From: Fibrobacteria bacterium
Lineage (GTDB): Bacteria; Fibrobacterota; Fibrobacteria; UBA11236
Direction of reading: 5' to 3'
DNA: 11,140 bases
Assembly: GCA_041746255.1 (NCBI GenBank)
Contig: JBGTHM010000029.1
Location: 1-11,140, forward strand
Shown in pieces: positions 3,856 to 10,755 of the stretch (within the stretch, counting starts at the first letter, position 1; each line of letters begins with the position of its first letter). The notes under the pieces were generated by a model. That model did not search any database, had not been told where the DNA came from, and saw only the letters and a program-made list of their open reading frames with translations. The translations under genes were made by a program, and so were the position numbers.

Positions 3856-4764
3856 TTATCCCACGCGGAACCTTCCCAACCAGACAATCCCCATGGCCAC
3901 CAATGCCATACCCGCGAGTTGGGTTACGCGAATCGTATCGCCCCATAGCAGCCATCCCATCAGGAAAGCGGCCAGGGGGCTGCTGCAGCTTGCAATGGAA
4001 GCGCGTGTTGATCCGATGAGACGCACCCCGTACCCGAACAGGTAAACCGGAATCACGGTGGAAAAAAATGCCAGAACCAAAAGCAATAACAATATCTCCG
4101 GAGTAAAACGGAGAGAATCCATTCCGCGGTCGAGACAGAAATGCCCGAGAAAGGTCCCTCCCGAAACCAACATGGCATAGCCCGCCAGACGCGATGCGCC
4201 AATTTTTACTACGTAGCGCCCATAGCCAACCAGGTAGACGGCATAGGAAAAAGCGCTCAGCAGAATCAGCGTCGCCCCGAAATACCCCTTTTCCGGGTGG
4301 ATACCCGCGCCGTCGGCGAAAGCGAGGGCAATTCCCCCATAACTCAAAGCCAGTGGCCCGAGTATGCCCAGAGAAGGCTTGGCCCCCGGAAGAAACAAAC
4401 CGATTACGACCACGAAAGCGGGATAGGAATACAGGATAAGCCTTTCCAATCCGGCCGACACGTATTGCAATCCCACCAAATCCAAATAGCTGGCGAGGTA
4501 ATAACCGGTAAACCCCAACAGCGAGACGACCACCCAGTCACGCACTCCGAGCGGGGAGGGATGGGTACGACGAAACAGTTGGACCAGCGCCACCACCAGG
4601 AAAATCGGCATCGCAAATAGCAGGCGCCCCGCCATCACCGTAACCGGGTCCAATCCCAGTTCGTAGGCGATTTTGATTAAGGGCCCTTTACACGCGAATA
4701 AAACGGATGAAAGCACCACGGCGGAGAATCCGGCCAGGTATCGAGTAGGTACTGGATAAGACAT
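3856..4764 (-). CDS. EamA/DMT superfamily transporter (about 10 TM, two EamA repeats)
   Basis: 302 aa with about 10 hydrophobic segments and motifs GYYLASYLDLVGLQYVSAGLERLILYSYP and GVRLIGSTRAS...LLWGDTI...QLAG. GGAG Shine-Dalgarno just upstream of ATG 4764. Confidence 0.92.
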   Translation of the reverse strand: MSYPVPTRYLAGFSAVVLSSVLFACKGPLIKIAYELGLDPVTVMAGRLLFAMPIFLVVALVQLFRRTHPSPLGVRDWVVVSLLGFTGYYLASYLDLVGLQYVSAGLERLILYSYPAFVVVIGLFLPGAKPSLGILGPLALSYGGIALAFADGAGIHPEKGYFGATLILLSAFSYAVYLVGYGRYVVKIGASRLAGYAMLVSGGTFLGHFCLDRGMDSLRFTPEILLLLLVLAFFSTVIPVYLFGYGVRLIGSTRASIASCSSPLAAFLMGWLLWGDTIRVTQLAGMALVAMGIVWLGRFRVG

Positions 4765-4809
4765 AACGGCTCCCAGGGAGGCCGAATTACCGTCTTTATG
4801 CGAGGGGAT

Positions 4810-4840
4810 AAAAAAACCCGCTCGCCAAGGAGCGGGTCTT
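4810..4840 (-). terminator. Intrinsic terminator upstream of the EamA gene (probable attenuator terminator)
   Basis: Minus strand reads ACCCGCTC-cttggc-GAGCGGGT-TTTTTT: an 8-bp stem (4837-4830 with 4823-4816) followed by a U-tract (4815-4810). Confidence 0.88.
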
Positions 4841-4882
4841 CGACCGGTTATTATTCCGGCATCAAAAAACGAACCCGCTCCT
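4828..4882 (-). promoter_or_regulatory. Antiterminator helix, mutually exclusive with the terminator
   Basis: On the minus strand AGGAGCGGGT (4882-4873) is perfectly complementary over 10 nt to ACCCGCTCCT (4837-4828), which contains the terminator 5' arm. A small CCGG-aataataa-CCGG hairpin (4859-4844) sits in the loop. Confidence 0.75.
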
Positions 4883-4993
4883 CCCCCCTATTCCAATGGT
4901 TGCGCGCCAAATAATAGCGGATAACGCAACTTTCAGCACAGCCGAAGCGGATGCCTTGCGATGGGAGTCAGGTGCGGAGGTGTTAGGGTTCAC
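4862..4993 (-). CDS. Putative 43-aa attenuator leader peptide MNPNTSAPDSHRKASASAVLKVALSAIIWRATIGIGGRSGFVF
   Basis: Hand-translated from GTG 4993 to TGA 4864-4862 (44 codons), with an alternative in-frame GTG at 4939. The last codons overlap the antiterminator strand. It is below the ORF-track size cutoff, and translation is inferred. Confidence 0.5.
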   Translation of the reverse strand: MNPNTSAPDSHRKASASAVLKVALSAIIWRATIGIGGRSGFVF

Positions 4994-5000
4994 GAAAAAA

Positions 5001-5030
5001 GATCTACTCAAGCGAGTACCCCGCTGTCAA
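5001..5030 (-). promoter_or_regulatory. Putative sigma70 promoter for the leader/EamA transcript
   Basis: Perfect -35 TTGACA (5030-5025), 18-nt spacer, weak -10 TAGATC (5006-5001), then 7 nt to the leader GTG at 4993. Confidence 0.55.
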
Positions 5031-5042
5031 CCCGGTGGCTAA

Positions 5043-5585
5043 TCAGGGTTGGGAATCGGAAGTCGCCGGCAAGACGGTTGTTCCATTGTCGGCCGGGGGG
5101 ATGTAAAGATCCGCCCAGGAGGCCCAGAAACGCGGCCGGTTTTCCAAATAGAATTCATCCTCGACGGCGTCTTCATACACCTGTTGCAAGGGGTTGAGCA
5201 CCAGGTAATGCAAATCTCCGACCTGATAGTCTATTACGTTTCCGCCCGCTTTTTCAGTAATTGCACCCCGTAAAGCCTTGCGCGGAATGCGGGGGTTATA
5301 ATGTCCCACCAATAGGAATTCATCCTGATAATCGCCTCGATAGACGAATTCCAAACGGTATTTCAAGATATAGGCATAGTCATAATGATCGTTGTCGGGA
5401 AAGTTTCCCGGTGCTTCGGCCAGGCGCGCGACAACCACCAAGGTACCCGGTACGGGAGGATTGTTGGGAATCCGGGTGATGGATTCCCTTTCGAGCTGGT
5501 TTTGCCGACAGCCGGTAAGGAAGCCACTGGGGAACAATCCTAGCACGACCGACATCAAAATAAGTAAACCGAATTCGCGGCGCAT
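5043..5585 (-). CDS. Uncharacterised lipoprotein (about 180 aa), beta-rich
   Basis: Starting at ATG 5585 gives a classic signal peptide MRREFGLLILMSVVLGLFPSGF plus lipobox LTGC. The ORF-track start at 5645 runs through a hairpin and is unlikely. The mature part is aromatic/acidic (PDNDHYDYAYILKY, VGHYNPR, EDEFY, RFWASWAD). Confidence 0.8.
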   Translation of the reverse strand: MRREFGLLILMSVVLGLFPSGFLTGCRQNQLERESITRIPNNPPVPGTLVVVARLAEAPGNFPDNDHYDYAYILKYRLEFVYRGDYQDEFLLVGHYNPRIPRKALRGAITEKAGGNVIDYQVGDLHYLVLNPLQQVYEDAVEDEFYLENRPRFWASWADLYIPPADNGTTVLPATSDSQP

Positions 5586-5591
5586 GCTCTC

Positions 5592-5600
5592 AATATAACA
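5592..5600 (-). promoter_or_regulatory. Extended -10 element (TGtTATATT) 6 nt upstream of the lipoprotein ATG; leaderless-type promoter
   Basis: Minus strand reads TGTTATATT-gagagc-ATG(5585). Confidence 0.5.
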
Positions 5601-5607
5601 TCGCGAG

Positions 5608-5636
5608 GAGAAATGGGCCGCGCATCGCACGGCCCA
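5608..5636 (-). terminator. Hairpin immediately downstream of nrdB; probable nrdAB terminator or 3' stabiliser
   Basis: Minus strand reads TGGGCCGTGC-gat-GCGCGGCCCA (10 bp with one G-U pair, 5636-5614) followed by a weak TTTCT tail. It starts 8 nt after the nrdB stop. Confidence 0.6.
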
Positions 5637-5644
5637 AGCAACCA

Positions 5645-6702
5645 TCAGTCCCAGTTCAAGGCGCCGCCCGTCTGGTATTCCACCACTCGGGTTTCGAAAA
5701 AGTTCTTTTCCTTGCGTAAGTCCAGGACTTCGCTCATCCAGGGAAAAGGATTTTCGGAATTGTAAATCTTAGGCAATCCGATTTTTTCCAATCGCCTGTC
5801 GGCCACATATTGAACATAGTCTTCGAACATGGCCGCATTGAGGCCGAGGATGCCGCGAGGCATGGTGTCCTGGGCATAAGCGACTTCAAGCTTCACCGCT
5901 TCGCGCACCATATGCACCGATTTCTCGCGGGTCTCCTTGGTCCAGATATCCGGGTTCTCGGCCTTGATGGTATTGATGATATCGATGCCGAAATTCATAT
6001 GCATGGTTTCGTCGCGCAGGATGTATTCGAATTGCTCGCCGGTGCCGGGCAGGCGGTTCTGGCGTTTGAAGTTCAACATCATCACGAAGCCGCTATAAAA
6101 GAAAATGCCTTCCATGATTACATAATAGCCGATAAGGTTTTCCAGGAAGGTTTGGGCGCCCTTGAAGGACTGCGTCTCGAAATCGGGCCGCAGCATTTCG
6201 CGCGTCAGGTCGATTTCGAAGGCGTCTTTTCCGTGAATGGATGCGACCTCGTGATACATGTTGAAGACTTCGGCTTCGTCCAGCCCCAGCGATTCGACGA
6301 TGTATTGGTAGGCGTGGGTATGCAGCGCCTCTTCAAAGGCTTGACGCAGCATGTATTGGCGGCATTCCGGATTGGTGATATGCCTATAGGCGGCCAGCAC
6401 GATATTGTTGGCGACCAGCGAATCGGCGGTGGAGAAAAACCCCATGTTGCGCTTGACCACCCGACGTTCGTCTTCGGTGAAAAGGTTGCTTTTCCAGAGT
6501 TCGATGTCGCGCGACATGTTGATTTCCTGCGGCATCCAGTGGTTCGCGCAGGCGTCGAGGTATTTTTGCCAAGCCCATTGGTATTTGATGGGAACCAGTT
6601 GGTTGACATCGGCCCGGCAGTTGATGATGCGTTTCTCATCCACCTTGACCCGGTCGGTCGATTCCCCGAACAGGGACTTATTCCCAACGATTGTTTCTGC
6701 GT

Positions 6703-9861: not shown

Positions 9862-10044
9862 ATCAACCACTTATGGAGAGAACTGGAGAATTTGGAGAAA
9901 CCCGGGAAGGTGCAGAGATTGAATACTAGCAATCTTTCTTCGGGCTAGGGGGAGATAGCCTATTCCTTCCCCACCACCGATTTCTGCGCAAAAATGGCAA
10001 TTGCGTGTTCCCGGCTAACCCGAATTTCTACTATTGTTCCTGAA

Positions 10045-10755
10045 ATGCACCAAATTTACCCCATCACACCCCTATCCCCACCCAAATACCCGAAATACGG
10101 TGTATTGGGGCCCCTAATGGCATTTTCGTTCTATTCCCTGTTTTTAGGAGCCTGTGGGGAGGACGTACGCAGCCGTTCCTACACGGAGATAGCGCCAGTC
10201 AGAGCACCCCAGCAATTGGAGGGTGAAATGTCGGGGTCGATGTTGGGCGGAAACCCCGTGGAGATAACCGTGACCTGGGAAGCTCCCGATAGCTGGGTCG
10301 ACAAAGACTCCTCCTCGGCTCTACGTATCGGCAGTTATCTGATTCCGGACCCTGCCTCGTCCCTACCCGTGCAACATATCGACGCTTCTAACCCACGTAA
10401 CATAGACGTTTCGGTGGTACAGTTGGCCGGCTTCGCGGGAGGACTCGAAGATAACGTAATCCGCTGGATGAAGCAAATCGGCATCCTGCTGCCCGACGAC
10501 GATCAGCTGCAGGTATTTCTCGAACAGGCGCAGCGGTTCAGCACCCGCACCGGCCAGGAAGGCATCTACATCGATCTCACCCCGATGCTTTCCGGCGACA
10601 TTACTCAATCCACCGGCATATTCGGGGCCATTATCGCCACCGGAAAATATACGGTGTTCGTGAAAGCCCAAGGCGCTAAGCCCAGGGTCATCGAAGAAAT
10701 ACCCGCCCTGAAGGCCTTCTGTAAGACCCTTGCCATCGAAGACAGCGACATATGA
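10045..10755 (+). CDS. Uncharacterised lipoprotein, translationally coupled to a ResB-like gene
   Basis: Hydrophobic segment GVLGPLMAFSFYSLF plus lipobox LGAC, followed by TWEAPDSW, LRIGSY and DVSVVQLAGFAGGLEDNVIRWMKQIG. The start is uncertain (ATG 9994 or 10045); I prefer 10045 because it gives a more normal signal length. Confidence 0.8.
   Translation: MHQIYPITPLSPPKYPKYGVLGPLMAFSFYSLFLGACGEDVRSRSYTEIAPVRAPQQLEGEMSGSMLGGNPVEITVTWEAPDSWVDKDSSSALRIGSYLIPDPASSLPVQHIDASNPRNIDVSVVQLAGFAGGLEDNVIRWMKQIGILLPDDDQLQVFLEQAQRFSTRTGQEGIYIDLTPMLSGDITQSTGIFGAIIATGKYTVFVKAQGAKPRVIEEIPALKAFCKTLAIEDSDI

Follow-up and report, generated by a model that had tools for sequence, protein, structure and literature searches.

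The locus analysed here raises the question of whether a short open reading frame (ORF) and a terminator hairpin lying before a gene for an EamA/DMT transporter in Fibrobacteria form a leader-peptide attenuator and, if so, what this attenuator senses. Attenuators that respond to amino-acid starvation normally control biosynthesis and sense their amino acid through codon runs. A sequence-only reading of the locus had proposed an attenuator of this type with an Ile/Val/Leu cluster. The window, the whole stretch of DNA analysed, is one complete contig of 11,140 nucleotides from a Fibrobacteria genome (G000).

Locus and Elements of the Leader

The gene order on the minus strand is nrdA, nrdB, a 200-aa lipoprotein-like ORF (5043–5645), the leader, the EamA gene, a hybrid kinase and a dicarboxylate/amino-acid symporter. 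The lipoprotein-like ORF is joined to nrdB and is conserved at 61% in the congeneric genome G001; it matched no Pfam or NCBIfam family, and neither did a second lipoprotein-like ORF (9994–10755, plus strand). The promoter, the leader ORF, the antiterminator and the terminator were all found on the minus strand where the sequence-only reading had placed them (Table 1), and the Ile codons of the leader are ATT ATT ATT ATA, as it had stated. The leaderless spacing of the ORF start had been overlooked: TAGATC is best taken as an imperfect −10 box, from which a leaderless transcript is predicted.

Table 1. Features of the EamA leader locus (window positions; the leader is read on the minus strand).
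Feature	Position	Strand	Basis and remarks
EamA/DMT transporter gene	3856..4764	−	302 aa, two EamA repeats, PF00892 E 2.5e-29
GGGAG, Shine-Dalgarno-like, of EamA gene	4770..4774	−	Read in sequence; GGAG retained in G001
Intrinsic terminator: 8-bp stem 4837–4816 and U-tract 4815–4810	4810..4837	−	Sequence, folding
Strand 3, common to antiterminator and terminator	4827..4838	−	Folding, consensus stem
Inner hairpin, begins at stop codon, stacked in antiterminator	4839..4866	−	G-U pair here is A-U in G001
Leader ORF, GTG start 4993, TGA 4864–4862, 43 codons	4862..4993	−	Frame, start and stop retained in G001 across indels
Strand 2, antiterminator 5′ arm, within last ORF codons	4872..4883	−	Folding, family comparison
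Trp codon 29, candidate control codon	4907..4909	−	In frame in 30/30 EamA leaders
Tandem Ile codons, unconserved in family	4910..4915	−	Tandem Ile in 8/30 leaders
ATCCGCT, earlier proposed as strand 1; exists, unconserved	4916..4922	−	Folding, family comparison
Predicted strand 1, ORF 5′ end, pairs with strand 2 if ORF untranslated	4968..4991	−	P 0.72 here
−10-like box TAGATC	5001..5006	−	18-nt spacer to −35; 7 nt before leader start
−35 box TTGACA	5025..5030	−	Sequence; same in G001; TTG-type box in 30/37 lineage loci

The terminator agrees with the earlier description, with an 8-bp stem (folding energy −18.4) and a U-tract that ends at 4810, 45 nt ahead of the EamA start codon ATG (4764). 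The antiterminator formed by strands 2 and 3 is likewise present, but it spans 12 bp (4883–4872 with 4838–4827) and not 10 bp as first described; together with the stacked inner hairpin it reaches −29.8 kcal/mol. A strict scan of 4500–5400 called neither a promoter nor a terminator, and the folding energy of the whole leader is not significant against chance (z −1.4); therefore, it is conservation that carries the case for the leader. Only one copy of the leader exists in the genome, which rules out a repeat element. No Rfam family matched the window or any of 20 related loci at gathering score; the sequence-only reading had not recognised the leader as a named family.

Conservation of the Leader in Fibrobacteria

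The EamA protein has a match in 48 of the 61 lineage genomes. A DNA search of 60 relatives matched only G001, and a scan of the genome contigs returned one locus; the family is visible through protein, not DNA, similarity. The 37 loci with sufficient upstream DNA were examined, leaving aside L002, L007 and L024 (35–173 nt upstream), L032 (3′ half) and six distant f5 copies. Leader ORFs were chosen blind to their content, by promoter and then nearby ORF, which picked 30 of the 37 loci, the window's own included; the relatives in these counts are not independent. In the seven loci missed by the pattern, a Trp-bearing ORF before the terminator was recognized by eye. An unpublished genome (G021) supplied one of the EamA leaders (L009) and one of the cimA leaders (L172), and no conclusion rests on them.

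G001 retains the −35 box, the GTG start, the peptide segments AIIWR and RSGF, the stop codon, the hairpins and the terminator, with the frame preserved across indels. In the 30 leaders, the −10 box lies 4–9 nt before the start codon (7 nt in 17), and a Shine-Dalgarno (SD)-like motif precedes the start in only one, so that lineage transcripts are predicted to be leaderless. Peptide length varies between 26 and 60 codons. In the terminator consensus stem, built from 29 sequences, 5 of 11 pairs show changes on both sides. Among 26 leaders, strand 2 falls in one reading frame in 14 and in another in 12, and the conserved peptide end therefore reflects a constraint at the RNA level. The lipoprotein gene stands upstream at only 2/30 leader loci, which assigns the hairpin to EamA. 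Promoter, ORF and antiterminator are all conserved in relatives, the comparison that the sequence-only reading had named as a test, and ORF, antiterminator and terminator are conserved with EamA: at the level of sequence, a leader-peptide transcription attenuator before this gene is confirmed.

Several loci depart from the common arrangement. The six distant f5 loci have no leader by eye, and upstream of one f5 copy (L146) a direct repeat of ~90 nt with internal palindromes, REP-like in appearance, occupies the place where the leader would be. At L063, L081 and L082, the leader ORF retains its Trp codon, has seemingly lost its own promoter and lies directly behind the upstream gene. L053 is labelled as an Actinomycetota order, whereas the lineage homologues are labelled Fibrobacteria; it is probably a mislabelled assembly. 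At L019 and L022, a long membrane-protein ORF, MFS-like by eye, begins directly after the EamA stop codon and is probably under the same attenuator.

Predicted Folding of the Switch

The ribosome was modelled as a 12-nt mask from the A-site codon, on RNA ending at strand 3. In the predicted folds, strand 2 captures strand 3 in 28/30 leaders with the ribosome at Trp, in 18/30 at Trp+7 and in 0/29 at Trp+12, which supports the earlier proposal that a ribosome at the stop codon masks the antiterminator and one near Ile-Ile-Trp (IIW) does not. A stall anywhere between the first codons and about Trp+5 is predicted to permit the antiterminator; thus, geometry alone does not pick Trp. The spacing to strand 2 varies (21–45 nt in 25 of 26 leaders). 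When the full transcript is folded at equilibrium with the last Trp masked, the terminator wins in 30/30 leaders, and the switch would therefore have to be kinetic.

When no ribosome is present, strand 2 is predicted to pair with the 5′ end of the ORF in 28/29 leaders, compared with 65% of shuffled controls and 78% of controls with swapped 5′ ends, and the duplex energy is −22.0 versus −17.3 for controls. These values give modest support to the ORF 5′ end as a putative strand 1. The 1:2 helix first proposed, with ATCCGCT (4922–4916) as strand 1, fared poorly: this segment can form an isolated duplex with strand 2 (−10.6), its pairing probability in the untranslated-ORF ensemble is 0.00, and over 30 leaders the near-Trp duplexes are no better than shuffled ones (−7.5 versus −7.1).

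The Trp Codon and the Ile and Leu Leaders of the Same Lineage

All 30 content-blind leaders contain an in-frame Trp codon (one in 24 leaders, two in 5, three in 1; tandem in 0/30). A Trp codon lies within the zone 9–19 codons before the stop codon in 30/30, with the conserved one at about 11–19 codons, and the distance from the first Trp to the stop varies from 11 to 23 codons. An alignment anchored on Trp has no other invariant column, its flanking bases vary, and TGG has no conserved pairing partner in the folded leaders. Tandem Ile, Val and Leu occur in 8, 4 and 2 of the 30 leaders, and IIW in 3, compared with Trp in all; the Ile/Val/Leu cluster is not supported as the signal of the family. 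Of the sensing options raised earlier (Ile/BCAA or Trp), Trp is favoured by this comparison and Ile is not.

The mere presence of Trp is a soft test, because TGG also occurs in frame +1 in 24/30 ORFs, and Ala, Lys, Leu and Val are found in all 30 leaders, as their high frequency predicts. The residues near Trp are biased, being basic or Ala before it and His/Leu plus hydrophobic after it, and Asp/Glu are nearly absent from the Trp zone. Ile is present in the zone in 23/30 EamA leaders. The four Ile codons of the window's own leader lie inside the predicted ON window, and a local Ile input may exist at this particular leader.

Controls are provided by the same genomes. A genome-wide scan reduced 148 terminator-like hairpins to seven candidates, three of which are promoter-proximal: the EamA leader and those before cimA (TIGR00977 above cut-off) and leuA. 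Among the relatives, 17 of 30 cimA loci were picked, of which 16 were kept after L177, a mis-pick without a terminator, had been dropped, and 10 of 30 leuA loci were picked. Tandem Ile occurs in 15/16 cimA leaders and Leu runs in 10/10 leuA leaders; Trp is absent from both sets (0/16 and 0/10), and hence from their zones 9–19 codons before the stop (0/16 and 0/10). The Ile run of cimA leaders starts 9–17 codons before the stop, in the zone where the Trp of EamA leaders sits, and the mean number of Ile codons is 4.4 in cimA leaders, mostly shorter peptides, versus 2.7 in EamA leaders. As judged from sequence, Fibrobacteria appear to use leaderless starvation attenuators in which the sensed codons correspond to the pathway controlled, with Trp holding the corresponding place before EamA. 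No report of such leaderless attenuators in Fibrobacteria, with Ile codons before cimA or Leu codons before leuA, was found in the literature searched.

The cimA leader of this genome (G000:C32:43349, plus strand; L161) is a leaderless ORF of 41 codons with an Ile run before citramalate synthase. Its SAIII segment resembles SAIIW of the EamA leader and the terminators are alike, which hints at shared leader ancestry. Named homologues of the citramalate synthase itself, ~80% identical, bear the label Fibrobacteria, and on this ground the lineage is taken to be Fibrobacterota. The leuA leader (G000:C127:24611, plus strand; L162) is also leaderless, with 17 codons and a Leu run before a Leptospira-type LeuA2, and its antiterminator arm appears just after the stop codon.

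Homologues Beyond the Lineage

From 589 confirmed metagenome loci the best 80 were taken, of which 79 could be placed. In 24 of these 79, a different conserved RNA motif follows a leaderless-type ORF, and an in-frame Trp codon is present in 23/24, a count that includes several near-copies and concerns a motif first spotted in Trp-bearing leaders. The leader at L118 has CGG in place of the Trp codon with its RNA arms intact, which is either a natural loss or an assembly error. The arms of the metagenome type are complement-swapped with the same topology, and predicted folding gives the ON state in 18/18 leaders with the ribosome at Trp and in 0/18 at Trp+10; the hairpin has a poor U-tract. An extra translational layer at the ribosome-binding site of this type was considered and found no support (0/20 more open with the ribosome at Trp in equilibrium folding). 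The loci are Proteobacteria-like, their proteins clustering with those that bear the names Nitrotoga, Sterolibacterium, Sulfuricella and Gammaproteobacteria. A third arm set with the same predicted ON/OFF behaviour is found in Vibrio sp. THAF191d (L154, ~2270–2400), where an SD-led ORF of 17 codons with one Trp precedes an EamA homologue.

Many EamA homologues have no leader, Bacteroidota-like ones included, and none was seen by eye at the Azospirillum, Vitreoscilla, Acinetobacter and Ralstonia homologues from a plasmid collection. At L064, L069, L071 and other Bacteroidota-like loci without a leader, EamA lies directly behind dapD of the lysine pathway, an adjacency that may point to a different substrate link. 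In a quick tree with long branches and labels assigned by eye, leader-bearing EamA genes are scattered among genes without a leader; this tree cannot separate a single origin of the leader from multiple origins.

The EamA Transporter

The structural model of the EamA protein (pLDDT 92) has two EamA repeats in a DMT fold, and Lys26, Lys31, Arg47 and Glu107 are invariant. The importer LicB and 5I20, which we take to be YddG, match the fold equally (16–17% identity), and the fold search therefore says nothing on direction; a PDB sequence search with the protein gave no match. Among the 67 neighbouring ORFs scanned (of 117) around EamA loci, there were no trp or aro genes and no other hint of the substrate.

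The nearest Atlas cluster bears the automatic name 'Transporter ycbK', and this name is the sole sequence tie to YcbK. The ycbK gene of Bacillus subtilis is presumably an EamA gene in the rtpA operon. It is described as an uncharacterised, TRAP-repressed putative efflux gene (PMC13170310, PMC3971595), and the rtpA operon as answering to uncharged tRNA-Trp through T-box and ribosome-stalling control (PMC10327191). The link between ycbK and the present subfamily is a possible one and serves as a lead only.

Proposed Mechanism and Alternatives

The attenuator probably monitors the supply of charged tRNA-Trp through its single Trp codon and would turn EamA on when this supply fails. Folding predicts that a ribosome which has come to the stop codon hides strand 2, so that the terminator forms. 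With the ribosome held at Trp, strand 2 would stay open and pair with strand 3 ahead of the synthesis of strand 4, and RNA polymerase would read through. If no ribosome loads, the ORF 5′ end is predicted to hold strand 2, and the terminator would again form. As the cause of the stall, we infer a lack of Trp-tRNA.

Sensing of Trp is favoured by several lines of evidence: the presence of Trp in 30/30 EamA leaders picked by promoter position alone; the match of codon to pathway in cimA and leuA controls of the same design, with Trp in 0/26; the lack of a conserved pairing partner for TGG, together with variable flanks, Trp-to-stop distance and peptide length; and the retention of Trp and of the ON/OFF geometry in the metagenome and Vibrio RNA designs. 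Against it, one Trp codon would be a weak sensor, since for Ile and Leu these genomes rely on codon runs; any early stall would be inducing; and L118 carries CGG. In addition, neither inspection by eye nor the genome-wide scan showed such a leader at trpE of the genome, trpA is present in 58/61 genomes, trp and aro neighbours were not seen in the ORFs scanned, and the biased residues around Trp would also follow from a peptide effect.

The job of the transporter is the least certain part of this Trp-attenuator model. Uptake of Trp or a precursor is the simplest reading and a reasonable possibility, short of an even chance; export of a substance blocking the synthesis or charging of Trp is conceivable and somewhat less probable.

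Ligand- or drug-dependent arrest is the main alternative, though an unlikely one, in which Trp in the nascent peptide would aid a small-molecule stall within ~5 codons and the stall would induce an exporter of that molecule. It would account for a Trp that is single and never tandem, for the biased neighbours of Trp and the near absence of Asp/Glu in the zone, and for a predicted ON window that reaches Trp+5; against this stand the lack of a second invariant residue across lineages, the variable spacing to the stop codon and to strand 2 (see above) and last residues that are fixed as RNA in two frames. In TnaC of Escherichia coli, one essential Trp lies ~13 codons before the stop codon, and the ribosome arrests at the stop with fixed spacing and blocks Rho. 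EamA leaders resemble TnaC in having one Trp upstream of the stop, but they vary in Trp-to-stop distance and in their last residues, and termination is the predicted outcome with the ribosome at the stop; an arrest of the TnaC type at the stop codon would hide strand 2 and turn the gene off, not on. A DMT exporter has a precedent in YddG, described as exporting aromatic amino acids (PMC13170310).

A general sensor of translation stress like B. subtilis bmrB–bmrCD, in which any slowing in the leader induces and Trp is a built-in slow codon, has a published precedent (PMC4191407) and fits the finding that any early stall permits the antiterminator. It is nevertheless improbable, as it leaves unexplained why Trp in particular is retained in two phyla and in three RNA designs and is absent from 26 paralogous leaders. 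Starvation for Ile or branched-chain amino acids, the option that the sequence-only reading had put first, is more doubtful still: four Ile codons in the ON window of this leader, the likeness of SAIIW to SAIII of cimA and Ile in the zone of 23/30 leaders speak for it, whereas tandem Ile occurs in 8/30 EamA leaders versus 15/16 true Ile leaders, and the mean Ile content is lower than in the mostly shorter cimA peptides. That the hairpin is a mere terminator of the upstream nrdAB–lipoprotein unit and the ORF there by chance would suit the empty strict promoter scan and the unremarkable folding energy, and is very improbable given that leader and terminator travel with EamA, with the lipoprotein gene at 2/30 loci, and that promoter, ORF and antiterminator are conserved.

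Relation to Known Attenuators

The EamA leaders share with E. coli trpL, thrL, leuL and ilvL (RF00513, RF00506, RF00512) a short ORF, a control codon upstream of the antiterminator arm, the choice between 2:3 and 3:4 pairing and a terminator with a U-tract. They differ in their single non-tandem Trp, leaderless start, length of 26–60 codons and transporter target, and in a strand 1 that is predicted at the ORF 5′ end. They are not of the trpL type, because tandem Trp occurs in 0/30, the downstream gene is EamA and not trp, and the match to Rfam Trp_leader (RF00513) is only sub-threshold, at 18.8 bits against a cut-off of 41; nor are they of the ilv/leu type, given the low counts of tandem Ile, Val and Leu. 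The family is predicted to work like trpL and is not a trpL member.

Leaderless attenuator ORFs are described in Deinococcus deserti (PMC4007540), as are poly-Cys leaderless ORFs of mycobacteria that act on access to the ribosome-binding site (10.1101/834739). As predicted for the present leaders, the peptide of these ORFs is described as beginning with the first transcribed base and the amino acid as sensed by stalling; the ORFs differ in carrying multiple codons for the sensed amino acid and in controlling synthetases or metabolic operons, as far as these accounts go. The rtpA/ycbK system shares control by uncharged tRNA-Trp and a putative efflux gene; the control described there is exerted by a T-box, TRAP and translational coupling, not by a terminator switch, and kinship is given by the automatic cluster name only. 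In bmrB–bmrCD, a leader ORF and a terminator likewise gate a transporter gene, but the system is described as responding to ribosome antibiotics, its terminator lies inside the ORF, and no invariant amino-acid codon is apparent in that account (PMC4191407). Leaderless attenuator ORFs (PMC4007540, 10.1101/834739) and attenuator-gated transporters (PMC4191407) thus each have a published precedent. No description of the EamA leader family was found in the literature searched, which covered few subscription journals.

More tentatively, a one-codon Trp sensor before one EamA subfamily across Fibrobacterota and Pseudomonadota, with its RNA switch rebuilt in at least three ways, might mark a dedicated responder to failure of Trp-tRNA. 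If the subfamily is that of YcbK, three unrelated controls would converge on it, and the protein could be a new importer of tryptophan or else a pump acting on tryptophan antagonists. If true, a single-codon version present in two phyla would illustrate how simple a ribosome sensor can be, and the leader offers a direct route to the substrate of an EamA subfamily that is widespread and uncharacterised. Should B. subtilis YcbK be included, the old question of why Trp shortage leads to production of a supposed efflux protein would become testable. Vibrio sp. THAF191d is a cultured organism and offers a possible test system.
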